NCBI GenBank assembly: GCA_964575975.1
Contig: CAZNTU010000130.1
Span: forward strand, 1-15,417
Origin: an uncultured Desulfobacteraceae bacterium
GTDB lineage: Bacteria; Desulfobacterota; Desulfobacteria; Desulfobacterales; SKZT01
Direction: 5' to 3'
DNA length: 15,417 bases
The notes under the pieces were generated by a model, which made no database searches, was not told the origin of the DNA, and worked only from the letters and a program-made list of their open reading frames with translations. Below are positions 1 through 15,007 of the stretch, piece after piece (positions within the stretch are counted from its first letter, which is position 1; each line of letters opens with the position of its first letter). The translations under genes and the position numbers were made by a program.

Positions 1-171
1 AGGGGGGTGTTGTTTCCGGTGAACAATGGATCGAACATGCCACACAGACACCCCCATAGCCCCCCTCAAGGGGGGAATTGCACCGCTCTCCAACCGCACG
101 GGTCGATAAATTCGGCATGTTACCCGTTAAGTTTACAATGTCAAAATAACCAATCTCCAATAACCAACAAC

Positions 172-966
172 CTACTTGAACAGCTTCATATCCTCCGCGA
201 TCCGATGGTAAGGCTCGGGGAACTCCGGCTGGAAATTCTGATAGAAGGTCACGGGATAGCGCGCGCCGATTTTTTTGCCGGCGTTCTTCAACCCGTTGTA
301 CAATAAAGGAAGGTCCTTTCCAGGGAGACTTAACACCATTTCGTCGTCCTGAGTCATGGAAAAGATTCTATCTCCCATGCCCGGCATGGAAATCCTGGGT
401 TCCCCGGTCTTATGCGGAGCAAGAAGATATTCGGTGCATTCCACCTTTCCCCCGAAATTGCCGGCGATCCGCTTTCCCGTTTCAAAGACCAGGGCTTGGA
501 CCATCCTCATGATTTGAGCCGGGTTTCCGTAGATCGCCACCGTATCCGGCTCGAACGCGTTTTTCATGAGAGGAGCCATCAGAATCGACCTTTCGGGATT
601 GTTTTCGAGGCGAATCATCGAACGGATTTCATCCTGGGCGTTCTCCTCCTTTTTCGCGAACTCGACTTCGCAAAAAAGGCCTCCCATGGTTTGCCCCGGA
701 TCGGGAGCGTCAGTAAACCCAAATGCGAGCATGGCGGGCAGGCAAATCAAATCCTCCCGAGTCAGTCCCACGGTCCAGCCGTAGACGCGGGCCATGGTTA
801 CCCCCTGGCAGATGGTCACGCGCTTTTTCAACACCGCCGAGGGTCTCCGGGTTTTATCCGGAAAAGAATCGGTCTTTTCCAGAATTTTCACCCCGATCAG
901 CAGGGTTTTCAACCTCAGATCCTCTCTAACGTAATTGGCCGCTTCCCTGTAATCCGTTTTTTCCAT
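172..966 (-). CDS. DUF169/COG2043-like protein of unknown function (264 aa). Start taken at the ATG at 964-966, not at the track's longer ORF start at 1197
   Basis: Long minus-strand ORF. The in-frame ATG at 966 has an AGGGAG Shine-Dalgarno about 7 nt upstream. The extension to 1197 would run through AT-rich, repeat-dense intergenic DNA. The family call comes from memory of sequence character only; no search was possible. Confidence 0.6.
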   Translation of the reverse strand: MEKTDYREAANYVREDLRLKTLLIGVKILEKTDSFPDKTRRPSAVLKKRVTICQGVTMARVYGWTVGLTREDLICLPAMLAFGFTDAPDPGQTMGGLFCEVEFAKKEENAQDEIRSMIRLENNPERSILMAPLMKNAFEPDTVAIYGNPAQIMRMVQALVFETGKRIAGNFGGKVECTEYLLAPHKTGEPRISMPGMGDRIFSMTQDDEMVLSLPGKDLPLLYNGLKNAGKKIGARYPVTFYQNFQPEFPEPYHRIAEDMKLFK

Positions 967-1000
967 GTCATGCTCCCTTGTCGGTTTGGATGAGTTTTTT

Positions 1001-1042
1001 AGCATGCTCTTTTCGGATTTTCGGACTTTCCCGAAAAATCCG
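1001..1042. promoter_or_regulatory. Cluster of dyad and direct repeats in the 5' region of the DUF169 gene: AGCATGCT palindrome (1001-1008), tandem TTTTCGGA x2 (1010-1025) and an inverted copy CCGAAAAATCCG (1031-1042)
   Basis: Read directly from the sequence. Sits 35-75 nt upstream of the minus-strand ATG at 966. Could be an operator, or a 5' UTR hairpin on the minus transcript (CGGATTTTTCGG ... CCGAAAATCCG). Confidence 0.3.
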
Positions 1043-1103
1043 TAGTTTTGTTCGAAGACGGGAGACACTTTTTGCGTTTCATAAATGCCCGTTTTCCTAG
1101 CCT

Positions 1104-1134
1104 TTGATTCCCAAAGTGAAGGTCTTGATTCCCA
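1104..1134. repeat. Direct repeat TTGATTCCCA x2 (1104-1113 and 1125-1134), 21 bp centre to centre
   Basis: Exact 10-mer seen twice. Two helical turns apart, in the divergent DUF169/PHP intergenic region. Confidence 0.5.
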
Positions 1135-1291
1135 CAATATTGTTCGTACTATTAATTTTCGTGCAATTTTCCACCTTATCCGTTGCGATCTTTTCAAGAT
1201 CCGATCGTAAAAACATGTTTCGATTCGCAGCTATTGCTGGGGAACCGAAACGAACAAAACTTAAATTCACGAAGCACGGGAGTCAAGAACT

Positions 1292-1951
1292 TTGATTATC
1301 GACATGCACAATCACACGAACATATCGTCCATATGCAGCGTTCTTCGTCCGGAAGAACTGATCGAGACGGCGAGGTCTCGGGGTTTGGATGGAATCTGTG
1401 TAACGGAGCACAATACCCTCCAGGGGGCCAATGTCGCAGCCGACCTCGGACGCAGGATGAAGTTCCCGGTTTTCAGAGGGCTGGAGGTCTCTACGGATGT
1501 TGGAGACATGCTGGTTTTCGGATACTACAAGGATATTCCCCAGGGGACGCCTTTGCCGGAATTGTGCAAAATCGTCCACGCTGAAGGAGGGGTTTTATTC
1601 GCAGCCCATCCCTTCTATCTGCGGGGAGGATGGAACCTTTATTCCGGGATGAAAAAAAAGATGCGCATCGATTTGGAAACCGGCTGGTGGAAGGCTGAAA
1701 TTCTCGGGCAATTGGACGGCATCGAAATCAGGAACGGCAATGTCGATCACGACAACAACCGGAAAGCCGAGGAATTGGCCGAAAGACTGCACATACCGGG
1801 CATAGGCGGAAGCGACGCCCACTCGGTGGACATGATCGCGAAAGCCGCGACGAAGTTCTCCAAGGACATTCATGACGAGGCGCAACTTGTCGCCGCGTTG
1901 AAATCCGGGGAATTCGAGGCTATGTATCTTCGCCGCGACACGATGCACTAG
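1292..1951 (+). CDS. PHP-domain metal-dependent phosphoesterase (219 aa)
   Basis: N-terminal DMHNHT motif, then VTEHN, AAHPF and GGSDAHS histidine/aspartate motifs typical of the PHP fold. TTG start at 1292 has GGGAG (1278-1282) 9 nt upstream. An alternative ATG lies at 1304. TAG stop at 1949-1951. Confidence 0.85.
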   Translation: MIIDMHNHTNISSICSVLRPEELIETARSRGLDGICVTEHNTLQGANVAADLGRRMKFPVFRGLEVSTDVGDMLVFGYYKDIPQGTPLPELCKIVHAEGGVLFAAHPFYLRGGWNLYSGMKKKMRIDLETGWWKAEILGQLDGIEIRNGNVDHDNNRKAEELAERLHIPGIGGSDAHSVDMIAKAATKFSKDIHDEAQLVAALKSGEFEAMYLRRDTMH

Positions 1952-2220
1952 CGCCCCTCGCTTGGCCGGCCGTTTTCAGCCGGAAAGCATAACCGGTCAA
2001 GCCCGCCGAAACTGCGGCGATCACGGCAATAAAGCCCAAAAACAACCAAACTTTGTTCTTCGCGTTGAAACATCAATCTCCGCTATAGCTCGTCCGTCGG
2101 GAAGCGCACGGCTAAAGCCGCAACTACAAACACGACGATTTCGTAATGGAAGCGTTTACGGTCAGGCCAAGAACGCGGCTTGCTTGGTCATGCATCCCGC
2201 AGCGCCTTGTTGCATTTGCA

Positions 2221-2249
2221 TGGCAAGTCCCTGAATAAACGGGTATAAT
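2221..2249 (+). promoter_or_regulatory. Candidate sigma70 promoter for the membrane-protein gene: perfect TATAAT at 2244-2249 with a weak TGGCAA -35 at 17 bp
   Basis: Hexamers seen in sequence. Downstream dyads GAAGATCTCC (2297-2306, 10-mer reading from 2296) and ATTGCGG-N16-CCGCAAT (2310-2339) could be operators. Confidence 0.3.
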
Positions 2250-2437
2250 AGGGTCTGTTCCGGTATATTCCGGCTATGGGACACGATCTTGATCGGAAGA
2301 TCTCCGGAGATTGCGGAAATTTTCCGAGAATACCGCAATGGGTTGTTGTCCCAAGTTGACGATGTCGAGCCACGATGCATAAGTTTCGACATAGGGTATA
2401 TGGACAAAGATCGAGAGGAACGAAAAAAGGATAAAAC

Positions 2438-3415
2438 ATGCAGAGATTGAATTTTTCGGATATTTTCCAAAGCAGAGACACTCACAAAAAAGTCATCAAG
2501 TTTGGTTTGGCGCTGTTTTTGGCGATGGAATTGTTCATTTACATCGGAGCTGCCAATCACACGGGAAAAGAGTCATGGGTGAACATTTACGATTCACAGG
2601 GCGAAAAAATCTACGAGACGCCCGGTACCGGTTTGACCAAATACGAAATCCACATTTTCGAAAGGTCGTTCGGTTCGCTGGAACAATATCGGATCCGAAC
2701 CGAAACCCGGAACAAGGAGTTTCCATTCAGGGCTTGGCTGGCCATTGCGGTGGGCGCTCCGATCGGACTTGCCCTTTTGATAATGTATTTGCTGCGCGCA
2801 TATTTGACATTTCTGGGAGACGATAAGACTCGGGACGGCGACTGGAACCCGACCGAAACAAACGGCCCCTCCCATCGAGCCGCCGCCAGATGGTTCGGTT
2901 GGAGCCGAATATCCATTTTTCACCTGGGGGGGTTTTTGATCGTATGCGTCCTGGCCGTATGGCTGGTCCCCGACTACATCGCCGACGCCGCCGGGGGATT
3001 GCTGGAGACGATCCTCCGATTCAAATGGTTCTTTCTAAGCATTTGCGCCTTCTTGGCTTCGCTGGTCGTATGGGTCATTTACTTGCGCTACCGAATGTCA
3101 CAGAGAATGATGGATCGCCAAATGGATCTGGAAAAGTTCCGAATGGAAAAACAGATGATGGTGGAAATGCAGAAGCTTCAGACAAGGGCATTGCCCCAGA
3201 CTACTGCGAGGGAATACGGCGAGCCGTTTAACAGCTCTGCAAACGACCTGTCTCAAAAAATAACGGACGGAATCCTTCCTGGAACCGTCGATGACAACAA
3301 TTCTACCGTTCGGGAAAATTCGGAAGAGAAAATGGAAACTGCCGAGGCGGAGGGTTTTGCGGACAATCCGGACAGAAACGGAATATGGCATTTCTTGAAA
3401 AGGAAATCGGGCTGA
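2438..3415 (+). CDS. Hypothetical integral membrane protein (325 aa). Four predicted TM helices, a roughly 60-aa extracytoplasmic loop, then a Met-rich coiled-coil segment and an acidic tail
   Basis: ATG at 2438 with AAGGA upstream. Hydrophobic stretches around residues 20-38, 100-120, 150-172 and 190-212. Segment RMSQRMMDRQMDLEKFRMEKQMMVEMQ holds 9 Met in 27 residues. Confidence 0.8.
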   Translation: MQRLNFSDIFQSRDTHKKVIKFGLALFLAMELFIYIGAANHTGKESWVNIYDSQGEKIYETPGTGLTKYEIHIFERSFGSLEQYRIRTETRNKEFPFRAWLAIAVGAPIGLALLIMYLLRAYLTFLGDDKTRDGDWNPTETNGPSHRAAARWFGWSRISIFHLGGFLIVCVLAVWLVPDYIADAAGGLLETILRFKWFFLSICAFLASLVVWVIYLRYRMSQRMMDRQMDLEKFRMEKQMMVEMQKLQTRALPQTTAREYGEPFNSSANDLSQKITDGILPGTVDDNNSTVRENSEEKMETAEAEGFADNPDRNGIWHFLKRKSG

Positions 3416-3469
3416 CATCGTTCATTTAAGTGAATCGATGCGTTGAAGCGCATATGCCTTGCAAACGCG

Positions 3470-3499
3470 CCCGTGAACCTAAACGGGTACGTTCACGGG
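3470..3499. terminator. Hairpin CCCGTGAAC-(12 nt loop)-GTTCACGGG between the convergent membrane-protein and MFS genes. No U-tract
   Basis: 9-bp perfect stem seen in sequence. It overlaps the MFS stop codon at 3493-3495. The absent T-run makes intrinsic-terminator function uncertain. Confidence 0.3.
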
Positions 3500-4655
3500 C
3501 AAAGCCGCCTCCATTTCTTCATTCCCCATACGAAAAATACCGCAGCCAAAACTCCGGAGACCGCCGAGACGACTGCCACGCCGGAAATTCCGAAAGCGGT
3601 CCACAAGGGCCCCCCGAACAGCGCTCCGGCCACTCTTCCCATTCCCGACGCCGCCAGGAAGCCGGACATCATGGTGGCTCTGCTTTGGGGAAGCAATTCG
3701 GTGCAGAGCGAGAGACTCGAAACAATTGTAAATTCGTATGTCAGAAAAATCAGGAAAATTACCGTCAGCGCGAAAGGCAAGTACGCGTCGCAGAACGGCA
3801 ATGGCAAATAGCAGCATGTGGACAAGACGGTTCCTGCCAAGACGGCTCGCTTCAGCCCGATCCTGTCCGATACGAAAGCGGTCAGAAACTCTCCGGACAA
3901 CTCTGCGGCGCCTATGACCGCAGCTCCGAAGCCCAGCGCGATCAGGCTCATGTCGAAGGTCTTTTCGAACCATGCTCCATAAATCACGAAAAGATTGTCG
4001 TTGGCAGCGCTGACAAAAAACGAGAATCCAAGCATACCTACGGAGGATTTTTTCCGGAACAATCCTTTCAACAATGCATGGCCCCCCCCCCCGACCGAGG
4101 AACTTTCTCCCGCGCCTTGTCTCCTCTGCACAACAACGTAAAAAGCAGAATGCCGACGAAGCCGAGCATGGCAATCGCAAAAAAAGGGGAACGCCATCCC
4201 CAGTTTTCCATCATTATTCCCACCAGGGGAATTCCCATCAACGCACTCCCGGCCCAACTTACCTCCAGAAGCCCGATTACCAAGCCACGACGTTCGAATG
4301 GGACTCTTCGTCCCACGTAAGCCTGCAAGGACGGGTCGAATACGTTTTTTCCAATCCCTGCGAGAGTAAGGCCCGCGAAGACGAAAGCGTAGACAGGAAA
4401 AAAGGCGGCGGCGATCATTCCGGTCGAGAGCAGGCAGAGTCCGGTCAGCATCATGACCCGGTAGCCCATGCGGTCGGCGACGGGGCCGAAAAAAATGGCG
4501 AAAACGCCGGTCGCTTGGTTTGCAGCGAGAATCGGTGTGACAGCGGTCAAGGGAACGTTCATTCCCCGACTCAGTTCGGGCGCGAACGGATAGGGAAAGC
4601 GCCTTGCGGTGTTCAACAGGAAACGGCATGAAACGACCAAGGCAAGTTTCAACAC
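3493..4655 (-). pseudogene. MFS-family transporter with its reading frame broken at a G11 (plus-strand C11) homopolymer at 4082-4092. The N-terminal half (frame of ORF 4068..4655) and C-terminal half (frame of ORF 3493..4659) are both intact
   Basis: The N-half carries MFS motif A (GPVADRMGYRVMM) after the first helix. The C-half is multi-TM. The two frames abut exactly at the homopolymer. One extra G (G12) would give ...KVPRSGGGGHALLKGLFRKK... continuously. GTG/TTG start at 4655/4652 with a weak RBS. Only 5 clear TMs in the N-half, so the N-terminus may also be degraded. Confidence 0.75.
4082..4092. repeat. C11 (minus-strand G11) homopolymer tract at the MFS frameshift site
   Basis: Counted directly: g at 4081, then 11 c at 4082-4092. 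Confidence 0.9.
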
Positions 4656-4677
4656 CCACAGGGACTTGGCGTTCGAA

Positions 4678-5934
4678 TCAGGAATCTTTCACCCTTTCGA
4701 TTTTGGCGTTCAAAGCGGCGAATTTCTTCTCGATGGATTCGTATCCCCGGTCTAGATGGTACACCCTATTGACGGTGGTTTCTCCTTTGGCGGCAAGTCC
4801 CGCCAGAATCAAGCTGGCGCTTGCCCTCAAGTCCGTCGCCATGACGGGTGCGCCGGTCAGCCTATCGACGCCCTTGACCATGGCCGTATTCCCGGAAATC
4901 TCGATGTCCGCGCCCATCCTTTGCAGTTCGCACACATGGATGAATCGGTTTTCGAAAATGTTTTCCGAAATGACGCTGGTGCCGTCGGCAAGGGTCATGA
5001 GCACCATGAACTGCGCTTGCATGTCCGTGGGATAGCCAGGATAAGGGAGCGTCTTCACGTTGGCGCTGGCGATTCTGTCCGCGCCTTGCACTCTAAGGCT
5101 CTTCCCGTTGACATCAATCAAAGCGCCGGTTTGTCTTAATTTGTTTATTACGGCCCCGAGATGGTCCGGTTCGCAACTTTCGATAAGCACGTCTCCCTTG
5201 GTCAGTGCTCCGGCGACCAGAAAGGTGCCGGTTTCGATTCTGTCCGGAATGATTTCAATTTCGGCGGGATGCAGCGATTCAACGCCCTTGATGGTTATCA
5301 CGGATGTTCCTGCGCCTTGGACGTTTGCACCCATTTTATTCAAGGCAACGCCCAATGCGGCGATCTCCGGCTCTCGCGCCACGTTTCGAAGCACCGTTTC
5401 CCCTTGTGCCAGCACGGCGGCCATCATCAGGTTCTCCGTACCGCCGACGGTTGGAACATCCAGATAGATGTCCGCTCCTTTCAGTTTTTCTGCGGAGGCC
5501 ACAACGTAACCGTGCTCGATCTCTATGGAGGCGCCCATTCGAGCGAGTCCCTTGAGATGCAGATTGATCGGACGCGCCCCGATGGCGCATCCTCCCGGAA
5601 GAGACACTCTTGCCTTTCCCAGTTGCGCCACGAGAGGTCCTAGAACCAGTATGGATGCCCTCATCTTTCTGACGAGGTCGTAAGGGGCAACAGAATTGTT
5701 CAGGCCGCCGGCGTCTATGGAAATCTCCGATTCGCTCGTTTCGACCTTGGCCCCCAAATGCGACAGCAAATCCTTGACGCTGTCGATGTCTTTCAGATTG
5801 GGAACGTTGGAATACGTGTTTTTCCCGTCCGTAAGAAGGGCCGACACCAGAATAGGAAGCGCCGCGTTTTTCGATCCGCTGATTTTCACCTCGCCCTTAA
5901 GAGGATGGCCGCCTTCGATGACAATTTTATCCAA
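4678..5934 (-). CDS. murA: UDP-N-acetylglucosamine 1-carboxyvinyltransferase MurA (418 aa), TTG start
   Basis: Collinear similarity to E. coli MurA from MDKIVIEGG... through ...[10 protein letters not shown]. Includes the active-site Cys in [11 protein letters not shown], so this is the fosfomycin-target type. The start codon at 5932-5934 is TTG, by alignment with the MDK N-terminus. Confidence 0.95.
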
Positions 5935-5949
5935 TCGATTATTTCCCTA

Positions 5950-5990
5950 AAAGCCAAAAAGCGCTCCCCCGCCGGGAGAGCGCTTTTCGT
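5950..5990 (-). terminator. Intrinsic terminator for the minus-strand respiratory operon: 11-bp stem (AGCGCUCUCCC/GGGGGAGCGCU with one G-U pair), GGCG loop, then UUUUUGGCUUUU
   Basis: Read from sequence. Lies immediately downstream of the small ORF stop at 6017 and about 25 nt upstream of the murA TTG start. An A-run on the other side makes it weakly bidirectional. Confidence 0.8.
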
Positions 5991-6016
5991 TTTAAAAGCT
6001 ATTTATGCAGTCCGGA

Positions 6017-6196
6017 TCAGTGATGCCCTTCGTGGCCGCCATGGCCGTGGCTTCCCTGGCCTTTCACGGTATCGTATACGGTTTTCAGAACGACGAACGT
6101 CATTCCCGCGCCCAATATCGACAGAGCGTACCATAAACCGCCGTGAAAGACGAAGTGGCTCATATCCCAAATCCATTCAAAGGAAAACGGAAACAT
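6017..6196 (-). CDS. Unannotated small membrane protein (59 aa): MFPFSFEWIWDMSHFVFHGGLWYALSILGAGMTFVVLKTVYDTVKGQGSHGHGGHEGHH. Single TM helix plus a His-rich C-terminal tail
   Basis: Below the size cutoff of the ORF track. ATG at 6194-6196 (minus) has AAGGAGGG 7 nt upstream and lies only 18 nt after the qrcD stop. Stop TGA at 6017-6019. The terminator follows directly. Translated by hand from the sequence. Confidence 0.55.
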   Translation of the reverse strand: MFPFSFEWIWDMSHFVFHGGLWYALSILGAGMTFVVLKTVYDTVKGQGSHGHGGHEGHH

Positions 6197-6214
6197 ATTC
6201 TATCCCTCCTTCAA

Positions 6215-7540
6215 TCAGGCTGTTTTGGCTATAGCGGTCGGAGCAAAATCTCCGGCCGGCTCTTGCTCTGCTTCCTCCGCCTTTTCGGTCGCGGCGCCAG
6301 GCAAAGGATTCAATTCCTTTTCCTGGGGGAATACGGGCAGGTAGCGGTAGGACAGGGAAATCAGGATTATGCCGTAGGCTACCGGCAGAATGGTGGTCGC
6401 GATCTCCTGCCAGCTGGGGAAGTAGGTGAACCAGCTTTCGAACGGCATGACGGGAACGGCCAGCACTTGCAGGACCATGACCCAACGATTGACGCTAACG
6501 CCGACGCAAGCCAAAGTGACCGCGATCCAGAGGGCGACCTTGTTCTGCCTTCCGGCCTTGGTCACCAGGATCAGCGCGGGAACCACGCCGCCGAGCACCA
6601 CTTCGAGGAACAGAATCCAATAACCGTACGCCGAACCGGGATTGTTGGTGTAGAAGTCGGCCAGTGTGAATCCCATGGCGGGAGCCGTGTTGATCGCCCA
6701 GTAGACGGTATCGACGATCTTCGCCACGATGTAGGTCAAAAGCATCCAACCGGCGATCTTGGCCAACAGCTCAATCACGTTGTCCTTTACCAGCTTTTTG
6801 CCCGTGGCGACTTCCGTGATCTTCGTCACCAAGATTGTGAAGCACGGACCGCAGGCGGCGGCTGACCAAGTGAAGAGAAAGAAAGTCCAAGGCCAGATCA
6901 GAACGCCTTCGCGAAATCCGAAGGGCCGTCCGAAAAGCACGCCGGCGACGCCGCCCAGGGAGCCTTGATGGAAAAAGGACAGGAAGGCGCCGGTTGCGGC
7001 GAAGACGGCCATGAACTCGTGCATGTTGTGGCTTAAATTGTGGAAAAACGGGACTTTGTCGATCTGGCGGTTTTCCAGGACGAGAGGAATGTACTCTATG
7101 GTCAGAACCGCGAAGTAGCAGGACAGACAGAACGCCACTTCGGTAAGCATGGAGTGTACGTTCGCATGCCAGAAGATAAACCATCCTCTGAGCGGCTGAC
7201 CGATGTCGATCGCCAGAATCAGCAAGGCGGAACTGTAGCATATAAAGCCGATCAGAACCGCGTAGTTGATGATGTTCTTAAGTTCCTTCAGGTTGAAGAT
7301 GTAGCGTAAAAGCCCTGAGAAGAACGCGCCGCCGCCCAACGCGATCACCGCGAGGTCGGCCCAAATCCACAGGGCGAATCCGTACGCGTCGTTCATGTTG
7401 GTCTGGTTCAATCCTTTTACCCAACAAAGGATCATGGCGTAAACGCCAATGGCCAGAACCACGCCGACAGCGCCGATCCACAAGACAAACTTTCCGAGTG
7501 AACAGCGTTGGACACCCTCGGGAATTAATTCGGAATCCAT
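6215..7540 (-). CDS. qrcD: NrfD/PsrC-family polytopic membrane subunit (441 aa), QrcD-like quinone-interacting subunit
   Basis: About 10 hydrophobic helices. Size fits QrcD/ActC rather than the 8-TM PsrC. AGGAG RBS upstream of the ATG at 7540. Last gene of the cytochrome / Mo-family / Fe-S / NrfD module. Confidence 0.85.
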   Translation of the reverse strand: MDSELIPEGVQRCSLGKFVLWIGAVGVVLAIGVYAMILCWVKGLNQTNMNDAYGFALWIWADLAVIALGGGAFFSGLLRYIFNLKELKNIINYAVLIGFICYSSALLILAIDIGQPLRGWFIFWHANVHSMLTEVAFCLSCYFAVLTIEYIPLVLENRQIDKVPFFHNLSHNMHEFMAVFAATGAFLSFFHQGSLGGVAGVLFGRPFGFREGVLIWPWTFFLFTWSAAACGPCFTILVTKITEVATGKKLVKDNVIELLAKIAGWMLLTYIVAKIVDTVYWAINTAPAMGFTLADFYTNNPGSAYGYWILFLEVVLGGVVPALILVTKAGRQNKVALWIAVTLACVGVSVNRWVMVLQVLAVPVMPFESWFTYFPSWQEIATTILPVAYGIILISLSYRYLPVFPQEKELNPLPGAATEKAEEAEQEPAGDFAPTAIAKTA

Positions 7541-7612
7541 AAGGTATGCGCTCCTAAATGTTTAAACGGTTTCTATCACCACTGTTATTGCCTGAATATT
7601 GCAAAACCCCGA

Positions 7613-8428
7613 TCACTTATGGCCTCCGGCGGTTTTGGCGGCCTTGGCCACTTCCTTGGTTTCGCTTTCCAAGTAGTTGTCGCCCGACCTGCGGACCCAT
7701 TCCCTGGAGGAGACGTAATAAACTTTCGGATTGGTGTGAAGTCTTTCCAGGAGCCTGAACGCGTTGGGATTTTGTTTGAGTTCGTAAACCGCGTGCTTTG
7801 GATTGTCCAAGTCTCCGAACGTGATCGCGTCGACAGGACAGGCCTGGGCGCATGCGGTCTGATATTCATGCTCTTCCAGTTCCTTTCTTCCCTCGTAGAT
7901 GGCCTTGTCCATGGCCAACTGGTAGCGGTGGAAACAGAAACTGCATTTTTCGACGATACCGCGCATACGAACGGAAACGTTGGGGCTGAGATATTTTTCC
8001 ATTCCCTTGGGCCAGACCGGGTCCCACCAGTTGAAGTACCGGACATGGTAAGGACAGGCGGCCATGCAGTATCGGCACCCGAAACATCTCGTGTAAATCT
8101 GGCTGACAATGCCGGTTTCCATGCTGTAGTCGGTGGCGGTCGCGGGGCAGACCGAAACGCAGGGCGAATGCCCGTGCTCCCCGACGCCCGAACAATGCTG
8201 GCACGGTCTCGGAAGGTAGCAAATGTCCGTGTCCGGATAAGATTTGCCGTTGGTCAGCTTGTAAACCCGGAGCCACGTGATGCTCCGAATCTTATCCGTT
8301 TCGTCTTTCTTGAAAGGCACGTTGTTCTCCTGCATGCAAGCCACCATGCAGGCGCCGCACCCGGTGCATTTGTCCAGGTCGATGACCATACCGTATTTTT
8401 TGGCGTGTGTATTGTGTCCTTTTTCCAT
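7613..8428 (-). CDS. qrcC: Four-cluster [4Fe-4S] ferredoxin-type subunit (271 aa), QrcC/PsrB-like. No signal peptide
   Basis: Four Cys motifs: CTGCGACMVAC, CQHC-x10-C-x3-CP, CFGCRYCMAACP and CSFC...CAQACP. No N-terminal signal, consistent with Tat hitchhiking on the large subunit. Confidence 0.9.
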   Translation of the reverse strand: MEKGHNTHAKKYGMVIDLDKCTGCGACMVACMQENNVPFKKDETDKIRSITWLRVYKLTNGKSYPDTDICYLPRPCQHCSGVGEHGHSPCVSVCPATATDYSMETGIVSQIYTRCFGCRYCMAACPYHVRYFNWWDPVWPKGMEKYLSPNVSVRMRGIVEKCSFCFHRYQLAMDKAIYEGRKELEEHEYQTACAQACPVDAITFGDLDNPKHAVYELKQNPNAFRLLERLHTNPKVYYVSSREWVRRSGDNYLESETKEVAKAAKTAGGHK

Positions 8429-8452
8429 CAGAACCTCATATAGATTTTCAAT

Positions 8453-8520
8453 CTTTCAGCTGTCGGCCTTCAGCTTGCTCCGAATCGCGCGACGCGAAAA
8501 ACCAGGCCGTAAGCTGAAAG
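8453..8520. repeat. Imperfect 16-nt inverted repeat CTTTCAGCTGTCGGCC (8453-8468) / GGCCGTAAGCTGAAAG (8505-8520), 14 of 16 complementary, with 36-nt spacer. A nested TCGCG-CGA-CGCGA mini-hairpin sits at 8485-8497
   Basis: Seen in the 112-nt qrcB-qrcC intergenic region. Would form a long-range stem-loop in the polycistronic mRNA. Confidence 0.5.
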
Positions 8521-8540
8521 CTAAAATTATTTTGAAAAGC

Positions 8541-10775
8541 TTAGGCTTTGGTCAATTTCGCCCGGATTCCCCATGCCGCGTTCAATCCCGTGAGCGGATC
8601 CTCGACAACCTTAAGCAACTGGTTGGCGTTGAGGCCCTTGCCCCGTCCCATGTACTCGTCAAAGGCGGTGTGGCCCAATCCGGTGGGAATCGCGATCACG
8701 CCCGGCAGGATACCGTCGAACAAGGTCACCTTCACTTTCGCCGTGCCGGCCGCCGTTTGCAATTCGGCGTAGTCGCCTTCTTCCAAACCGGCTTTCTCCG
8801 CCGTCTTCGGATTCATCTCCACCACCACGTCATTATGGAACAAGACTTCGTTGGGGACTGTCTTGAGCATGAAAGGCGTCGTAGCCGCGTACCCTTTCGA
8901 GCGTCTCATGGAATCGTATGGAATAAGCGTGTAGTTTCCGGCTTCCATTTCGATCCCAAGGCTCTCGAAGTGCGGCAACCCTCTATTGTTCTCCTGGGGG
9001 TTCTTCACCGCAGTCGCCAAAAACTCGAACTTTTTCGAACTCGTCTCGAAGTTCCAAGGGTTGGGGACGACTTCGTCGCTTACCGCGACGACATCCTTCA
9101 GCAACGCGTCCCATTTGTCGCCGAGGGTTTCCTTCAAACAGGTCTCATAGTCGCACCAAGGGAACGCCTCGGATACCGAGCCGCCGAGTTTCTTCGCGAT
9201 CCCCAAAATGGCGTCGCCGGTATGCATGGTGTTCAGCTGAGGCTTGACCACCGGTTTGGCAAGCGCGAGAACCGGTTTTTTCAAACCCGCCGCGATCGGA
9301 ACGTCTTCGTAGCGCTCCAGGTAGACATGGTTGGGAAGGATCAGATCGGAAAACGCGGCCGTTTCGTCCATGAAGGAGGAGAAGCTTGCGACGAAGGGGA
9401 TTTGGGAGAAGGCTTTTTTAACGGCGTCCGTGTCGTTCATGGTGTAGAGAGGATTGGCGTTGGCGATCAGAAGCGCCTTGACGTCGTACTTTTCGCCGGC
9501 GTTGAGGATTTTGGGGAAGCGTTCCAGAAGGCTCTCTGCGCACAGCCACTCGTCGGACCCGGCGCCGTCAATCCGTCCTTTTTGAAGTCCTGCGGAAGCG
9601 ATCTCGTCGGCTCGAACCTCCGGCCATGCGATATAATCGAATTTCGGAAGGGACCATACGCCGCCTTCGGAATTGATGTTTCCGACGAGCGCGTTCAACG
9701 CCTGAACTGCCATGACTTCGTGAACGGAACCGGGAATGTCGCCCTTTCCTCTTCCGCATACGGCCAACGGTTTCTTGGCCTCGGCGAACTCGAGGGCCAA
9801 TTCCACGATGGTTTCCTCGCCGATCCCGGTGATCTCCGCGACCTCGCCCGGGCTGTAGTCGTTGGTCACGAGGTTCTTGAACTCCTTGAAACCGCTCGAT
9901 CCCGTATCGACAAAGTTCTTGAGGTACTTTTTCTGACGTACGATCACATGGGCGATGCCCATGGCCAAAGCGGCCTCCGTGCCGGGATTGATCGGAATCC
10001 ATTTGTCCATCTTTGCCGCAGTGGTAGAAAGGCGCGGTTCGATCTGGATCACCTTGCCCCTTTCGCGAATCCCGTTGATCGCCTGGAACATGCGGATGGG
10101 AGAACCCCATCCCTCGATCAACCCGCTGCCGAAACTCAAGAGGTAGTCGGTGTTTTCAAAGTCGAACCCGACCGGTCCCTCCGAGCCTTGCATCAGTTTG
10201 GCGGCGGTCCGGTACGTATCGAAGACGGTGGCGGGGGTCATGAAGTTCGAAGAGCCGTAAGCCGTCGTGAATCTTTTCAAGAGAGCGCCCACGGTGCCTT
10301 TGTCGTCCCCCGAAATCGCGGCCACCTTTTCCGGCTCGCCGGCGGCCCTGATCTCGGCCAGCTTCTCCGAAACGATGTCGATCGCCTCGTCCCAGGAAAT
10401 TTTCTGCCACTTGCCCTCGCCCCTTTCGCCGATTCTCTTCATGGGGGAAGGAACCCTGAAGGGACCGTAAAGATATTGAAGGCCGGAGGCGCCGAGGATG
10501 CAAATGCCGCCGTCGTTGACAGGGCTTCCTTCGGTCCCCTCGATCTTGATCGCCCTGTTGTCCACTTTCCGGACGGAAATGCCGCAACCGCCGGGGCAGA
10601 GCGTGCATACGGTATTTTCGTACGCGTATTGTCCATCGGGGGGAACCGGCGTCCATGGCCACATTTGAGTCCAAATTGACAAATCGTCCGTCAGTTTCCA
10701 GGGCAGCGGCGTAAGGTTAATCCCCGCAGCGGCCCCGACGGCGAGTGATAAGAAACATCTTCTGCTAAGTTTCAT
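8541..10775 (-). CDS. qrcB: Molybdopterin-oxidoreductase-family large subunit (744 aa precursor) with twin-arginine signal, QrcB-like. Start moved to the ATG at 10773-10775
   Basis: MKLSRRCFLSLAVGAAAG... gives a Tat motif SRRCFL. GAGGT SD lies 7 nt upstream of this ATG, and the track start at 10838 has no SD. N-terminal CTLCPGGC...C four-Cys cluster motif. Length and domain order match molybdopterin-family enzymes. Confidence 0.9.
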   Translation of the reverse strand: MKLSRRCFLSLAVGAAAGINLTPLPWKLTDDLSIWTQMWPWTPVPPDGQYAYENTVCTLCPGGCGISVRKVDNRAIKIEGTEGSPVNDGGICILGASGLQYLYGPFRVPSPMKRIGERGEGKWQKISWDEAIDIVSEKLAEIRAAGEPEKVAAISGDDKGTVGALLKRFTTAYGSSNFMTPATVFDTYRTAAKLMQGSEGPVGFDFENTDYLLSFGSGLIEGWGSPIRMFQAINGIRERGKVIQIEPRLSTTAAKMDKWIPINPGTEAALAMGIAHVIVRQKKYLKNFVDTGSSGFKEFKNLVTNDYSPGEVAEITGIGEETIVELALEFAEAKKPLAVCGRGKGDIPGSVHEVMAVQALNALVGNINSEGGVWSLPKFDYIAWPEVRADEIASAGLQKGRIDGAGSDEWLCAESLLERFPKILNAGEKYDVKALLIANANPLYTMNDTDAVKKAFSQIPFVASFSSFMDETAAFSDLILPNHVYLERYEDVPIAAGLKKPVLALAKPVVKPQLNTMHTGDAILGIAKKLGGSVSEAFPWCDYETCLKETLGDKWDALLKDVVAVSDEVVPNPWNFETSSKKFEFLATAVKNPQENNRGLPHFESLGIEMEAGNYTLIPYDSMRRSKGYAATTPFMLKTVPNEVLFHNDVVVEMNPKTAEKAGLEEGDYAELQTAAGTAKVKVTLFDGILPGVIAIPTGLGHTAFDEYMGRGKGLNANQLLKVVEDPLTGLNAAWGIRAKLTKA

Positions 10776-10859
10776 GGATTTTACCTCGTTATGTGAAAAT
10801 GCGAGCAATATTATTCTTGTTTTTTTTCGAGTCCGCAACAGAATGATATTTCATAGCTC

Positions 10860-11549
10860 TTACTTGTGGCAAACGAAGCAGGCGCCTTTTTCCGTCTGGA
10901 CGCTGCTTTGATTGACGTTGTTCTCCTGGTGGCATTCCGAGCAATCGTCCATCTTCATCCGGTCCCACGTGTTTTTCTTGAGCCCGGCGATGTTTTTGCC
11001 CCAAATGTTCCGGCTGTAGCCGGAAATTCTATTGTATTCGTAGATCGGCAAAGTTGTGGACCCCCCGATGTCGCCGTGGCAGGTCCGGCAATTCATTTCG
11101 CCGGATATCACGTGGGCCGCGTGCGAGAAGAACACGCAATCGGGTTGCCTGGAATAAACGAGCCATGGAACCTCCAGGCCGTTCGCGACATATTGCTCCA
11201 CGAAAATGGCTTCGTCCTCGCTCCCCCCTTGCACCTCGTAGTGGCAGTCCACGCACTGGGCAAGCTTGGGAGCGCCGGAAAACGTACCGTCTTCACGGAA
11301 GAAATGGCAGCTCTGGCAACCGTTGTCCACCATCTCGTTGTGAAGCTGGTGGTTAAAATCGAACGGCTGCTTCTTCTGCGAATAGAGGACTTTGGGAAAC
11401 CCAATCCATCCTACCAAAAGGCTCGCAACCAATCCGACAACGAAGAAAATGAAGACGATCCCAATGGTGTTTTTCTTCCCGGAAGCCTCGGCGCTTTCAT
11501 CGGCCGCTTCCGCTGAAGCCTCTTTGGCCTTTTCCTCTGATGTGCTCAT
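10860..11549 (-). CDS. qrcA: Membrane-anchored pentaheme cytochrome c (229 aa), QrcA/ActA-like
   Basis: Five CxxCH motifs (CQSCH, CVDCH, CRTCH, CSECH, CFVCH). N-terminal acidic tail, then one TM helix IGIVFIFFVVGLVASLLVGWIGF. GGAG SD 6 nt upstream of the ATG at 11549. Confidence 0.88.
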   Translation of the reverse strand: MSTSEEKAKEASAEAADESAEASGKKNTIGIVFIFFVVGLVASLLVGWIGFPKVLYSQKKQPFDFNHQLHNEMVDNGCQSCHFFREDGTFSGAPKLAQCVDCHYEVQGGSEDEAIFVEQYVANGLEVPWLVYSRQPDCVFFSHAAHVISGEMNCRTCHGDIGGSTTLPIYEYNRISGYSRNIWGKNIAGLKKNTWDRMKMDDCSECHQENNVNQSSVQTEKGACFVCHK

Positions 11550-11575
11550 GGAATCTCCGTCAAAAAGTGGTTTAA

Positions 11576-11616
11576 ATTTTCACAAAAGAACCCAAACAGA
11601 CCTTGAAAAAATTCAA
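11576..11616 (-). promoter_or_regulatory. Candidate class II CRP/FNR-family-dependent promoter for qrcA. TTGAA-N4-TTCAA dyad (11603-11616) is centred about 40.5 bp upstream of a predicted TSS. Extended -10 TGTGAAAAT (minus strand, 11584-11576)
   Basis: Dyad core TTGA-N6-TCAA matches 8 of 10 positions of the FNR box. The TG-n-GAAAAT spacing is exact for an extended -10. Predicted 5' UTR is about 20 nt. All positions hand-derived; no experimental support. Confidence 0.4.
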
Positions 11617-11796
11617 CGCCGGTTCCGTCGCCTTTTTCGAAATCGTATGGCCTGTACAATGAAAAAGCGCCGAATCGGGCGTTTCCGAACTTGAAAAGAA
11701 ACTATTTCCATAGGGTCGGGCGCCCGCCCCGAACAAACGGGACTGAAAATAATTTGAGTCTGTTTATCTATAGTTATCTGTTTTGTCAAGAAAAAA

Positions 11797-12639
11797 TCAT
11801 TGACCCATGCTGCCGTAACTGTGCAAGCCCGGCAAAAGATTCACGCCGAAATACGTGAAAAGGACCGCGGCGAAACCCGCCACCGACAGCCATGCGATTC
11901 TCTTCCCTCGCCACCCGCGCATCATCCTGGCATGGATCAGCGTCGAATAGATAAACCACGTGATCAGAGACCATGTTTCCTTCGGGTCCCATCCCCAATA
12001 GCGGCCCCACGCGCTGTTGGCCCAGACCGCCCCCGTTATGATGCCCGCCGTGAGAAACAAAAACCCGAACATCACGAGCTGGTAAATCAACTCGTCCAAA
12101 ATCGACGAGTCCGGAAGCCGACCGAGGAGACTGCTTTCGCTCCGGGCGCGTTTCTTCAGGATGTACATGACGGCGATTCCGAAGGCGACCGCGAAAGCCG
12201 CGTAGCCGACAAAGCACGTGATCACGTGGGCGATCAGCCAGTTGCTTTTCAAAGCCGGGACCAACGGCTGTATACGGTCGCTGATGTTCGGGGAAAGGCT
12301 CGCGTAGGCCAGGGCCAGGAAAGCCAAAGGCGCGGTGAACGCACCGATGACCCGGTTCTTGTACTTCATTTCGAGAACCAGGTAGACCGCTATGATGGTC
12401 ATCGAAAAAAAGACCAGGGATTCGTAAAGGTTGGACAAAGGCGCGTGACCGAAACCCATTTGGTAGGATTCGATCCATCGCAGCGCGATTCCGGCCAGGT
12501 TTCCGAAAAGTCCGGCCAAGGCGACCCATGTGGCCGCCTTGGCCGGACTTTCTTTCTTGAAAACCCACGAAAAAACATACAGAAACGCCGACAATCCATA
12601 AACGAACGTAGTGACGGACAATATGCTGGAACTGTTCAT
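11797..12639 (-). CDS. ccsA: Cytochrome c biogenesis protein CcsA/ResC (system II heme-handling protein, 280 aa)
   Basis: Polytopic membrane protein with the tryptophan-rich WWD motif WGRYWGWDPKETW and conserved flanking His residues. GAGAGG SD upstream of the ATG at 12639. Confidence 0.9.
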   Translation of the reverse strand: MNSSSILSVTTFVYGLSAFLYVFSWVFKKESPAKAATWVALAGLFGNLAGIALRWIESYQMGFGHAPLSNLYESLVFFSMTIIAVYLVLEMKYKNRVIGAFTAPLAFLALAYASLSPNISDRIQPLVPALKSNWLIAHVITCFVGYAAFAVAFGIAVMYILKKRARSESSLLGRLPDSSILDELIYQLVMFGFLFLTAGIITGAVWANSAWGRYWGWDPKETWSLITWFIYSTLIHARMMRGWRGKRIAWLSVAGFAAVLFTYFGVNLLPGLHSYGSMGQ

Positions 12640-12682
12640 TCAAACCTCTCGATTCAATAATATAAAAGGTGCGGGGGCGGGA

Positions 12683-14059
12683 TTATTCCATCGCCCGCAA
12701 TTGCTCCAAAATACTTTTCACCTTTTGCGCCATCCCGAGTTTGTTCTTGTTCGAAGAACCGGCGACCGTCACGCGGCATCCGTTGCCGGTCCGGACAGCC
12801 TCCACGAACAGGCGCTGGTGGGATATGAAAAAAGTGACGAAACATCCGGCGATCATCACGACAAAGCCGAGATATACAAGGGGGACGCCAGGATCGTACG
12901 TGACCTGAAGACCCGTATAGAATTTCTCGTCGTATTTTTCCACCGCGATCACGAACTCGCCTTTTCGCATGCGGTCGAAATTGGGAAAGCGAAGAGGCAA
13001 TACGATCTCGACCGGCTCCTTGTCCTTGAGGTTCAATGTTCCGATGAACGCCTGGCCGATAGAATGTCCCCGGAACTGCGCGTTGTCGCTGAAGCTTTGC
13101 AGCACGAATGTACCCTTGCCGTCAGGAAGATCGATCGTTTGGCCGACCTTCGCCTTTTTCATGATATTGAACCCGAACTCCTCTTCCCTAGTGGCGATGC
13201 TCAAGGTGACCGTGTCCGAGGGGACGGACCCGTAGCTAGACTGGAAAATATTGATGCCCTCGTATCTCAGAGGATCGTTAACGATGATGTCCTTTTTCAG
13301 AACTTCCTTGCCGTTCTCCAGTATCGTCAGCGAGCTTCGGTATTCCTTGGGGGTGCCGGACTCGTAGAAGCTGACGTCGAAATCGTCGCACCGAATCGCG
13401 AAATCGAGGGCTTGAATCGCGGGTTTGTTTCGCAGGCGGATGCTGTCGACGGTCTCGCCCTCGGGGATGTTGACGAATCCCTCGAATCCCATGATGGAGC
13501 CGATCAGACCGCCCAGCAGCAAAAAAATTATGCTCAGATGGACGATATAAGCCCCCAACCGGGTCCAACGTCCCTTTTCAGCTAAAAAGACCCACCCATT
13601 GTCGGTCTCTTCGACGCGGCAATAACCGAATTTCCTGCGAAGGAAAGGTTCGTACAGTTTGCGCAAGTCCTGGGCCGACCGGTCTCTTTCAAACTCCTCC
13701 TTGTCGGAATCGCCTCTGAAGCGTCCCGGATTGAAGGAGGGCTCTTTCACGAAAACCACCTTCCAAGCGGTCGGAAGCCTGTCCAGGGAACACACGACCA
13801 CGTTGGCCGTCAAGACGATCAGGACAAGCTGAAACCACCACGAATGGTACATGTCGAACAGATCCAGGAACGAAAACAGCGCGTAGAGCTTCGGGCCGTA
13901 GGCTTGCATATAGGCTGCGGGGCTTTCGTTCTGGGGGATGACGGTACCTATTATGGAAGTGGCCGCCAAGGTCAACAATACCGCGACCGTAAGCTTTACG
14001 GACGCGAAAAACCTCCACACCCCGCCAAGGGGGGTCGGAGAGGTATCGCTTCGTTCCAT
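12683..14059 (-). CDS. ccsB: Cytochrome c biogenesis protein CcsB/ResB (458 aa). Start taken at ATG 14057-14059 (MERSDTS...), not the track ATG at 14098
   Basis: N-terminal TM helix after WRFFASVKLTVAVLL, a large soluble middle domain, and a C-terminal TM pair (VYLGFVVMIAGCFVTFFISH), which is the typical ResB architecture. AAAGGA SD 8 nt upstream of the 14059 ATG. Nothing SD-like before 14098. Confidence 0.85.
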   Translation of the reverse strand: MERSDTSPTPLGGVWRFFASVKLTVAVLLTLAATSIIGTVIPQNESPAAYMQAYGPKLYALFSFLDLFDMYHSWWFQLVLIVLTANVVVCSLDRLPTAWKVVFVKEPSFNPGRFRGDSDKEEFERDRSAQDLRKLYEPFLRRKFGYCRVEETDNGWVFLAEKGRWTRLGAYIVHLSIIFLLLGGLIGSIMGFEGFVNIPEGETVDSIRLRNKPAIQALDFAIRCDDFDVSFYESGTPKEYRSSLTILENGKEVLKKDIIVNDPLRYEGINIFQSSYGSVPSDTVTLSIATREEEFGFNIMKKAKVGQTIDLPDGKGTFVLQSFSDNAQFRGHSIGQAFIGTLNLKDKEPVEIVLPLRFPNFDRMRKGEFVIAVEKYDEKFYTGLQVTYDPGVPLVYLGFVVMIAGCFVTFFISHQRLFVEAVRTGNGCRVTVAGSSNKNKLGMAQKVKSILEQLRAME

Positions 14060-14599
14060 CAATAATTCCTTTCCGATTCTATCCGGACTCGATCCCATAA
14101 TCGACGTCTCGTCAAAATGCCGTTTCGTGCAATCCGCGCGGGCGCGCCGGTTCGCGGCTCTCCTTCAAATCGACGAACGAGCATAATATTCATCCTCCCG
14201 GGACTTTTCCAGGTCTAACGCGAATTTTAGTGTCGGGTTTTCCCGTAGCCGCATTGGCTGGAAAATCGTTGCGGAAACATGTTTCATACTTTTCGGCTCG
14301 AGGCACCTACCCGACTCGATCATTGTTGGCGGCGCCCCGATGCAATAGGAGGTTATAACAAAACGGCAATATGGAAGCAACACAAAGAAAAAAACTGGAT
14401 TTGTTTAAAAATCGGCGGATTCGGAACTTGCAGGCAAGTACCGTGCTGTGGAAACGCGATTCTTGACAATTCCGGTTTCCGTATAAGGTTTTGATGTAAC
14501 GAGGCCGATCGAAAATGAAAACAACGATATGAAAGCGCGCGCCGAATTGGAAAAATGGACGGGCGGCAACCTTTTTATTCATGCCGCATTAAGCGAGGC

Positions 14600-14628
14600 T
14601 TAACTATATTATAAAACTATATTATAAA
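14600..14628 (+). promoter_or_regulatory. Candidate sigma70 promoter for the small Cys-rich ORF: TTAACT (14600-14605), 17 bp spacer, TATAAA (14623-14628)
   Basis: Hexamers and spacing read from sequence. Embedded in the tandem 13-bp repeat. Predicted 5' UTR about 115 nt. Confidence 0.3.
14602..14627. repeat. Perfect tandem direct repeat AACTATATTATAA x2, followed by AGGTG-N5-AGGTG
   Basis: Exact 13-mer at 14602-14614 and 14615-14627. AT-rich island inside a GC-richer genome. Confidence 0.9.
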
Positions 14629-14749
14629 GGTGATAAAAGGTGTGCAGAATCCGGACTCGGACACTCGTCCGCGCTGGCGTGGCGCGAAACGGCCTATCGA
14701 CAAACGAAAATCGGAAACGGGAAGCGTACCGGCTCCCCAAGGAGGAAAT

Positions 14750-14920
14750 ATGGCAAAATCTTCAAACGCTCGCAAGTGTTGTTCGATGGAAAAGGAACAC
14801 CTGATGGAGGAACTTAGAAAATGCGACATGAGTTCCTCCAATTACGACGAATTTCACCAGTGCTACCGGGATGCCGCAAGAGAAAGCGGCCTGCGCGCCA
14901 GATCGTGCGTCACCGAATAG
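14750..14920 (+). CDS. Small Cys-rich hypothetical protein (56 aa): MAKSSNARKCCSMEKEHLMEELRKCDMSSSNYDEFHQCYRDAARESGLRARSCVTE
   Basis: ATG at 14750 with AGGAGG 5 nt upstream (14741-14746). TAG stop at 14918-14920, followed 20 nt later by a strong terminator. Five Cys including a CC pair. The longer track ORF from 14630 lacks an RBS. Confidence 0.55.
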   Translation: MAKSSNARKCCSMEKEHLMEELRKCDMSSSNYDEFHQCYRDAARESGLRARSCVTE

Positions 14921-14939
14921 AACGGCGCGACAAGCGCCC

Positions 14940-14974
14940 AAAAAGCCGCAGGGGATATCCCCTGCGGCTTTTTT
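14940..14974. terminator. Bidirectional rho-independent terminator: perfect 24-nt palindrome GCCGCAGGGGATATCCCCTGCGGC flanked by A5 and T6
   Basis: 10-bp GC-rich stem with ATAT loop. T6 on the plus side and T5 on the minus side. Sits between the convergent Cys-rich ORF and the encapsulin gene. Confidence 0.88.
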
Positions 14975-15007
14975 AATTCAAGAGGTATGGAAGGTTTTTG
15001 CCGAAGT

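Follow-up and report, generated by a model that had tools for sequence, protein, structure and literature searches.

A conserved small membrane protein encoded beside qrcD, a candidate fifth component of the Qrc complex

Introduction

What is encoded by the short open reading frame (ORF) that closes a respiratory operon in an uncultured Desulfobacteraceae bacterium? The operon, qrcABCD, lies on contig CAZNTU010000130.1 (assembly GCA_964575975.1), of which positions 1 to 15,417 were analysed; this whole stretch of 15,417 nucleotides (nt) is referred to here as the window. The ORF, situated directly behind qrcD, specifies a 59-residue protein with one predicted transmembrane (TM) helix and no Cys or haem motifs. 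Analysis of its conservation, genomic linkage and predicted topology leads us to regard the small gene as a credible, undescribed fifth component in most sampled Qrc operons outside Desulfovibrio.

Qrc forms the entry of periplasmic electrons into the menaquinone pool and is an energy-conservation site in sulfate reducers, with a mechanism worked out on the four-subunit enzyme of one genus. Desulfobacteraceae dominate marine sulfate reduction, and in this family Qrc is abundant and constitutive, even in a species unable to use H2 or formate (PMC5109826). A 2026 experimental study and a 2021 review of NrfD-type subunits both describe Qrc as a complex of four subunits (PMC13059093, PMC8076601), bearing out the statement of the initial annotation that an extra subunit would be undescribed. 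Neither publication contains an experimentally determined structure of Qrc. A literature search for a subunit named 'QrcE' returned nothing relevant.

The small ORF is a separate gene under strong purifying selection

The ORF had been placed 18 nt behind the qrcD stop codon (TGA, 6215-6217), preceded by AAGGAGGG-N7-ATG and followed next by a terminator. All of these sequence statements are correct, on the minus strand, and the operon layout supports the accompanying claim that the ORF is the last cistron. The small gene is co-oriented with qrcABCD, no promoter-like site was found between it and qrcD, and the terminator lies 3' of it, forming a perfect 16-bp hairpin with a U-run ~27 nt past the ORF stop. 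Its predicted fold (dG -29.9 kcal/mol, z -3.3) was matched by 0 of 200 shuffled sequences. The gene downstream of the qrc operon in the window is murA.

A single-sequence search (phmmer) retrieved 131 proteins of 60-93% identity, nearly all 51-57 residues long, and a profile built from 30 relatives extended the family to 726 clusters at 90% identity. When 1.84 billion cluster representatives were screened in full with HMMER, 74 gave E <= 0.001, including groups only 25-45% identical that keep the N-terminal signature. Source databases list the exact window protein, like its relatives, as a 'hypothetical protein', so that the earlier description of the ORF as unannotated holds for its function and not for its presence among gene calls.

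The initial annotation had named missing conservation downstream of qrcD and missing coding selection as grounds for refutation; the ORF is conserved at this position in related and distant genomes, and coding selection is clear. In every one of 85 close-family loci the ORF is intact and starts with ATG, and an AGGAGG-type Shine-Dalgarno sequence stands 6-9 nt upstream in essentially all of them. Among 72 distinct DNA sequences, synonymous sites are saturated (proportion of synonymous differences, pS, 0.76) at a nonsynonymous proportion (pN) of 0.17, giving a median ratio of nonsynonymous to synonymous substitution (dN/dS) of 0.11; variability at codon positions 1, 2 and 3 is 0.16, 0.10 and 0.39. 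The small ORF is thus a true gene under strong purifying selection. A chance ORF or non-coding spacer might be considered, since ORFs of ~60 codons arise randomly and the window holds 132 ORFs of at least 40 residues. Its probability is close to nil, given that frame, start codon and Shine-Dalgarno sequence are intact in ~150 loci and that the protein is conserved although synonymous sites are saturated.

The reading frame of the small ORF relative to that of qrcD is 0, 1 or 2 in 29, 18 and 32 loci, respectively, and the two genes share a TGATG overlap in nine loci. Because the relative frames are mixed and such overlaps occur, the ORF is a separate cistron, usually translationally coupled, and not a read-through tail. 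A read-through extension of qrcD was rejected on these frames; in the window the ORF shares the frame of qrcD, with two stop codons in between. A split-off piece of QrcD was rejected on the finding that the upstream gene covers the whole QrcD model (1-408 of 408). One protein, P0244 (L173), looked like a fusion of the small protein with the C-terminus of QrcD; its contig measures 624 bp, and the join is most likely an assembly artefact. An RNA element in place of a gene was also discarded: no Rfam family reached threshold, and the terminator hairpin is the only local signal.

The protein has no match above chance in Pfam, NCBIfam or the Protein Data Bank (PDB), whether searched as a single protein or as profiles of 30, 41 and 92 members. 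Pfam searches with 41 and 92 relatives gave scattered single-member matches at E >0.005 (PetM at E 0.08, B12D at E 0.077), which are chance matches. Profile searches covering every PDB chain, including those of alternative complex III (ACIII) of R. marinus (6F0K), returned only chance matches with E >= 0.8. The small protein belongs to no described family.

The gene is linked to qrcD across phylum-level distances

Scanning metagenomes with the profile of the small protein gave 80 loci, 74 of them with usable upstream DNA, and QrcD is encoded directly upstream on the same strand in all 74. The other six contigs start <340 nt before the small ORF. The small gene usually lies 10-30 nt downstream of qrcD and carries its own Shine-Dalgarno sequence; murA usually follows as well in these loci, which belong to the Desulfobacterales clade. 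Candidatus (Ca.) Desulfarcum carries HPPK, not murA, downstream of the small gene. In one locus (L059:5867-6835), a 322-residue ORF, judged by eye to be DNA methyltransferase-like, is inserted between qrcD and the small ORF, which remains intact with its Shine-Dalgarno sequence despite the insertion. Another locus holds a further 62-residue ORF after the small gene (L170:7206-7394), with a dsrMKJOP-like cluster convergent downstream.

Distant relatives were found in a Desulfarculaceae genome, a Desulfatiglandaceae metagenome-assembled genome (MAG) and a Ca. Abyssubacteria MAG. In each, the gene stands directly after an NrfD-type gene in an operon of cytochrome c, molybdopterin-like, iron-sulfur (Fe-S) and NrfD genes, with unrelated flanking genes. 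Three of the most divergent cluster representatives show the same placement, and in all 12 genomic contexts inspected, among them those of the most divergent members and of a fusion protein described below, the gene adjoins an NrfD-family gene. The operon is of the qrcABCD type wherever upstream DNA is present in these contexts. The neighbouring NrfD proteins exceed the QrcD equivalog cut-off in all five full-length cases (646, 645, 578, 697 and 576 bits), and a sixth, truncated at an assembly gap, matches QrcD best. A Hydrogenedentota MAG (CP070779, L088) had appeared to hold qrcD and the small gene without qrcABC; this was rejected, as the run of N at 6920-7020 is a scaffold gap that truncates qrcD.

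Flanking genes vary by lineage, comprising murA, HPPK, a HAD hydrolase, cytochrome c554 and Omp85, and qrcD is the only constant neighbour. The linkage, seen in Desulfobacterales, Desulfatiglandales, Desulfarculales and Ca. Abyssubacteria, is exclusive across phylum-level distances: every member with enough flanking DNA adjoins qrcD, and none was found away from it wherever flanking DNA sufficed. Cultured carriers of the gene include Desulfocarbo indianensis and Dethiosulfatarculus sandiegensis.

This exclusivity bears on whether the ORF encodes a small membrane peptide with a function of its own (a toxin, a stress peptide or a regulator, for example) that hitch-hikes at the end of the qrc operon or serves murA. 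Small hydrophobic peptides are often autonomous, and in Desulfobacterales the ORF lies upstream of murA in most loci. Such a peptide is nevertheless extremely unlikely, as a strong terminator separates the ORF from murA in the window and, outside Desulfobacterales, murA is swapped for unrelated genes and qrcD stays. The cross-phylum conservation at dN/dS ~0.11 is also unlike that of type I toxins, and no Rfam RNA or PADLOC-type context is evident.

For the converse test, one genome per GTDB species was scanned using a QrcD alignment with the Abyssubacteria protein as its lead sequence, and the qrcD loci were searched in six frames with the family hidden Markov model. The resulting 80 species-level loci are those closest to the query, and none is a Desulfovibrio. 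The small gene lies directly downstream of qrcD in 65 of them and adjacent on the convergent strand in four, 18-135 nt from the qrcD stop, and is therefore found near qrcD in 69 of the 80. The convergent copies must have their own promoter; adjacency kept through inversion argues for a functional tie. Translational coupling to qrcD, as first proposed, is therefore common but not obligatory. No Desulfovibrio-named protein occurs among ~300 listed homologues.

A bitopic protein with an invariant N-terminal motif

The protein comprises an N-terminal motif, a hydrophobic core and a variable tail. In 254 unique members, M1, P3, F6, E7, W10 and G19 are essentially invariant and F17 exceeds 90%, while W8 is kept in 90% (otherwise F), D11 in 72% (otherwise mostly N) and H14 in 77% (Y or R in the others). 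The residue just behind the TM segment, K38, is present in 82% of members, with R in a further 9%. Hydropathy and an AlphaFold2 helix spanning residues 12-48 both agree with the single TM helix of the initial annotation.

The N-terminal segment has a mean of 0.11 Lys+Arg and 2.0 Asp+Glu per protein, and the 15 residues past the hydrophobic core have a mean of 2.4 Lys+Arg. Since the N-terminus is almost free of positive charge and the C-terminal flank is basic, we infer an N-out/C-in topology from the positive-inside rule. The cytoplasmic C-terminus, predicted earlier from the same rule, is supported by K38 and this charge bias. A short acidic N-tail can be translocated without a signal peptide, as in the Pf3 coat protein.

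AlphaFold2, run on the small protein with a 92-sequence alignment, predicted one continuous helix with a predicted local distance difference test score (pLDDT) of 85-95 over residues 11-40 and a disordered tail (pLDDT ~51). Conservation within residues 14-40 has its strongest periodicity at 100 degrees, producing a conserved stripe of H14, F17, L21, A24/L25, L28, G31, K38 and D42. The stripe would be the pattern of a helix packed on a partner along its full length, on marginal statistical grounds that are taken up below.

The histidine tail differs between clades

Six of the last 12 residues of the window protein are His, in the arrangement HGHGGHEGHH, and the initial annotation had taken this His-rich tail as the basis for a metal-binding assembly factor. 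The 14-residue Gly/His tail is unusually long: a typical core-clade member has 52 residues and ends in ...GKGGHHH, and the Desulfarculus tail closes with ...DPHEHGHH. Other clades have ...GFMRERHF(H), ...PPEISYRSRYSEY or ...RLWLRFPFTLW as their last residues, or possess long acidic tails. The last 10 residues contain no His in 83, one in 30 and at least two in 147 of 260 unique members. Judged from these alignments, the His tail appears to be a clade-specific embellishment, not the core function, and the conserved N-terminal 40 residues are presumably the functional part.

On this evidence the metal-binding proposal falls away as a general function. In its specific form, the cytoplasmic tail would bind Ni, Zn or Fe for delivery or sensing, which would suit the six His of the window protein, the 147 members with at least two and the many that end in HHH. 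We consider it very unlikely, as selection acts on the N-terminal 40 residues when the 83 members without tail His and the whole clades with unrelated tails are taken into account. The cofactor-bearing subunits of Qrc mature through the Ccs system and reach the periplasm by the twin-arginine translocation (Tat) pathway, and so would not be loaded by a cytoplasmic tail. HypB-, SlyD- and UreE-type metallochaperones resemble the window protein in a terminal cluster of His and Gly; the family differs from them in having 2-6 His of variable composition, absent in many members, and no chaperone domain, and Pfam and NCBIfam scans found no soluble metallochaperone domain. The Qrc cofactors themselves, haems c and Fe-S clusters, sit in periplasmic subunits (PMC5109826, PMC13059093).

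A fusion to a GcvH-like domain in one lineage

In one metagenomic lineage, the last gene of the qrcABCD operon encodes a 284-residue fusion protein (P0245, L169:8001-8855), in which the small-protein module forms the N-terminus (MFPGIYEFHWDTGHIIFMG...) and is joined through a Cys-rich linker to a GcvH-like domain (Pfam GCV_H, 25.5 bits). The fusion supports the module as a Qrc-associated membrane anchor and presumably puts the C-terminus where a 240-residue domain without signal peptide folds, the cytoplasm.

The same locus encodes a second, soluble, Cys-rich GcvH-like protein of 314 residues (L169:2164-3108) just before qrcA, and periplasmic [NiFeSe] hydrogenase genes lie nearby. Its QrcB is divergent, scoring 260 bits against a cut-off of 440.

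Discussion

We favour the reading that the small bitopic protein is an accessory fifth subunit bound to QrcD within Qrc, the cytochrome c3:menaquinone oxidoreductase, and consider it probable from the sequence evidence. It most likely applies to Desulfobacterales, Desulfatiglandales, Desulfarculales and Ca. Abyssubacteria. The extra small subunit of the initial annotation stays plausible, its status as a subunit being read from the linkage to qrcD only.

In the proposed arrangement, the protein would be made as the last cistron of the qrcABCD operon, and its acidic, aromatic N-terminus (MFPFxFEWxWD, no Lys or Arg) would be translocated to the periplasmic side. The long helix (residues 12-48) would span the membrane and pack on QrcD through the conserved stripe from H14 to D42, with K38 and the variable tail remaining cytoplasmic. 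The invariant motif, including Glu7, would then lie at the membrane surface facing the periplasm, the side on which QrcC adjoins the menaquinone pocket of QrcD. Its probable role would be to stabilise or shape the QrcCD membrane module, not to carry a cofactor.

Several observations weigh against a fifth subunit. No family member was found within 4 kb of qrcD in 11 of the 80 species-level loci, which renders the converse linkage partial. These 11 loci, from genomes that include CP070735, CP070689 and CP070843, form one contiguous clade in a QrcD neighbour-joining tree, which suggests lineage-specific loss or relocation and not patchy noise. Only three of 159 conserved QrcD columns differ between that clade and the rest, giving no clear interface signal. 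Co-translation with QrcD is not required, as seen in the four convergent lineages. AlphaFold2 on the isolated chain leaves residues 1-11 as a non-helical coil with a pLDDT of ~60, low for an invariant motif, and the 100-degree periodicity of conservation along the helix is of marginal significance (p ~0.045 by shuffling). The four-subunit Qrc of D. vulgaris is active in proteoliposomes (PMC13059093), and the small protein is therefore not essential for Qrc catalysis in general. As a separate observation, three of the 11 loci without the gene have a signal-peptide-bearing ORF downstream of qrcD instead.

The main rival casts the protein as a transient helper in the assembly or insertion of QrcD or QrcCD, required while QrcD enters the membrane or joins QrcC and absent from the mature complex. 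The genomic linkage is the same as for a subunit, the operon-terminal position with tight coupling to qrcD would place the protein at the site of QrcD insertion, and both the loss in one clade and the active four-subunit D. vulgaris enzyme (PMC13059093) fit a dispensable helper. The conserved stripe along the whole helix and the invariant terminal motif suggest instead a specific, stable interface, and the fusion to a 240-residue domain better fits a stably docked anchor. On balance we consider an assembly factor fairly unlikely; sequence data alone do not separate a subunit from an assembly factor of QrcD, which has 10 TM helices (TMHs).

Published experiments would not have revealed a peptide of this size. 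The purity of Qrc in the 2026 study was judged by four bands in sodium dodecyl sulfate-polyacrylamide gel electrophoresis (SDS-PAGE), the QrcCD structure used is a homology model, and the deletion strain keeps the chromosome downstream of qrcD (PMC13059093). We infer that preparations judged by SDS-PAGE would miss a 6-kDa peptide. Compared with QrcABCD of (Nitrati)desulfovibrio vulgaris, the window operon has all four equivalogs, and differs in the fifth conserved gene present here and in the 69 of 80 sampled species-level loci.

Single-TM peptides of 30-60 residues encoded at operon ends are known from other large membrane complexes, including CydX of cytochrome bd, CcoQ/FixQ of the cbb3 oxidase and PetM/PetG-type peptides of b6f, which they stabilise or modulate, and are overlooked by annotation and SDS-PAGE. 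The small protein is the same kind of element, but matches no Pfam or NCBIfam model of CydX, FixQ/CcoQ, CcoS or PetM, is unrelated to these peptides in sequence and has another partner complex.

The closest functional parallels are ActD and ActG of ACIII, the nearest relative of Qrc among complexes: both are, like the window protein, small cofactor-less membrane proteins encoded with an NrfD-type subunit. ActG, with a single predicted TMH, does not occur in every act cluster and is dispensable (PMC5928083); the small protein resembles it in its single TM helix, in being encoded in the operon and in not being universal, with one clade lacking it. ActD has two TMHs and a highly conserved Glu that faces the NrfD-type subunit ActC near the quinol site (PMC5928083). 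The small protein likewise has an invariant Glu, located in the N-terminal motif outside the hydrophobic core and not mid-membrane; unlike ActD, which possesses two TMHs and a cytoplasmic beta-sheet domain, it has one helix. There is no detectable sequence similarity to ActD or ActG, and the resemblance is functional only.

By analogy with Glu122 of ActD, the peptide may conceivably take part in energy coupling beyond passive stabilisation, an idea we hold to be unlikely and put forward as speculation. Glu7, together with Asp11 and His14, might lie next to the menaquinone site on the periplasmic side of QrcD and there handle protons or gate the access of quinone. The tail of the His-tailed clades might serve in the cytoplasm as a proton-collecting antenna at the mouth of the N-side half-channel of QrcD. 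If this were true, Qrc of the environmentally dominant Desulfobacteraceae would differ bioenergetically from the four-subunit Desulfovibrio model. The fusion in L169 hints in addition that the module might dock cytoplasmic GcvH-like domains on Qrc, which would provide a 'periplasm-facing' complex with a cytoplasmic partner.

For an accessory subunit bound to QrcD, the consequences are more immediate. A fifth gene conserved across orders means that Qrc of the carrier lineages may differ in composition from the model, with a bearing on structural work, annotation and heterologous expression, where the enzyme may fail or be unstable without the gene. The new small-protein family has a sharp signature that is usable in Pfam or NCBIfam and as a marker for qrc operons.

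Genomic context of the window

The window operon is a canonical qrcABCD operon, in which all four NCBIfam equivalog cut-offs are exceeded. The mechanically called qrcB ORF starts at TTG 10838; the alignment to the QrcB family model begins at residue 22, with a Tat-like signal (MKLSRRCFL), which makes ATG 10775 the probable true start. A co-localisation of ccs genes with qrc, as found here, has likewise been reported for Desulfococcus multivorans (PMC5109826). Across the window, all Rfam families stayed below their gathering scores, and the sole local Rfam signal is a sub-threshold match to the terminator-like end of a small RNA model at the terminator hairpin. Coordinates are compiled in Table 1.

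Table 1. Features of the qrc operon and small protein in the window, and species-level loci with a convergent or missing small gene
Feature	Location	Strand	Details
Small-protein CDS, candidate fifth Qrc component	6017..6196	(-)	ATG start, 59 residues, stop codon included; MFPFSFEWIWDMSHFVFHGGLWYALSILGAGMTFVVLKTVYDTVKGQGSHGHGGHEGHH
Shine-Dalgarno sequence AAGGAGGG	6204..6211	(-)	Within the 18-nt gap between qrcD and the ORF; 7-nt spacer to ATG 6194-6196
N-terminal motif, residues 1-19, predicted periplasmic	6140..6196	(-)	M-F-P-F-x-F-E-W-x-W-D-x-x-H-x-x-F-x-G
Transmembrane core, residues 20-37, part of long helix 12-48	6086..6139	(-)	GLWYALSILGAGMTFVVL; hydropathy
Gly/His-rich C-terminal tail, residues 46-59, predicted cytoplasmic and disordered	6020..6061	(-)	GQGSHGHGGHEGHH
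qrcD, NrfD-type integral membrane subunit, proposed partner of the small protein	6215..7540	(-)	NCBIfam NF041784, 692.9 bits (cut-off 570); Pfam NrfD
qrcC, four-cluster Fe-S subunit	7613..8428	(-)	NCBIfam NF041782, 449 bits (cut-off 400)
qrcB, molybdopterin-like subunit	8541..10838	(-)	NCBIfam NF041783, 554.6 bits (cut-off 440)
qrcA, multihaem cytochrome c subunit, first operon gene	10860..11549	(-)	NCBIfam NF041781, 259.5 bits (cut-off 180)
Intrinsic terminator of the qrc operon	about 5951..5990	(-)	16-bp stem, 3-nt loop, U-run; folding
ccsB (TIGR03144) and ResB-family gene, System II cytochrome c biogenesis	11797-14098	(-)	Directly upstream of qrcA
Convergent copy of the small gene	L094, L105, L134, L157; about 5240-5760 in each locus		
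qrcABCD loci without the small gene within 4 kb	L097, L102, L110, L139, L141, L148, L150, L154, L156, L163, L168		

The C-terminus of QrcD, at about 6290-6340 of the window on the minus strand and in all related loci, carries a strongly conserved motif, SL(S/A)YRYLP(V/M)FP.E.EL, that stops close to the last position of the NCBIfam model (408) and is followed by a variable low-complexity tail. Elsewhere in the window, a major facilitator superfamily (MFS) transporter gene at 3493-4659 on the minus strand appears to be split by a frameshift: its N-terminal half lies in ORF 4068-4655, and an MFS_1 match covers residues 212-378 of the overlapping ORF 3493-4659; the gene is either a pseudogene or disrupted by an error of assembly. 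At 15008-15415 on the minus strand, the coding sequence for the C-terminal portion of an encapsulin shell protein (Pfam Linocin_M18, E 2.7e-32, profile positions 137-253) runs past the window end.

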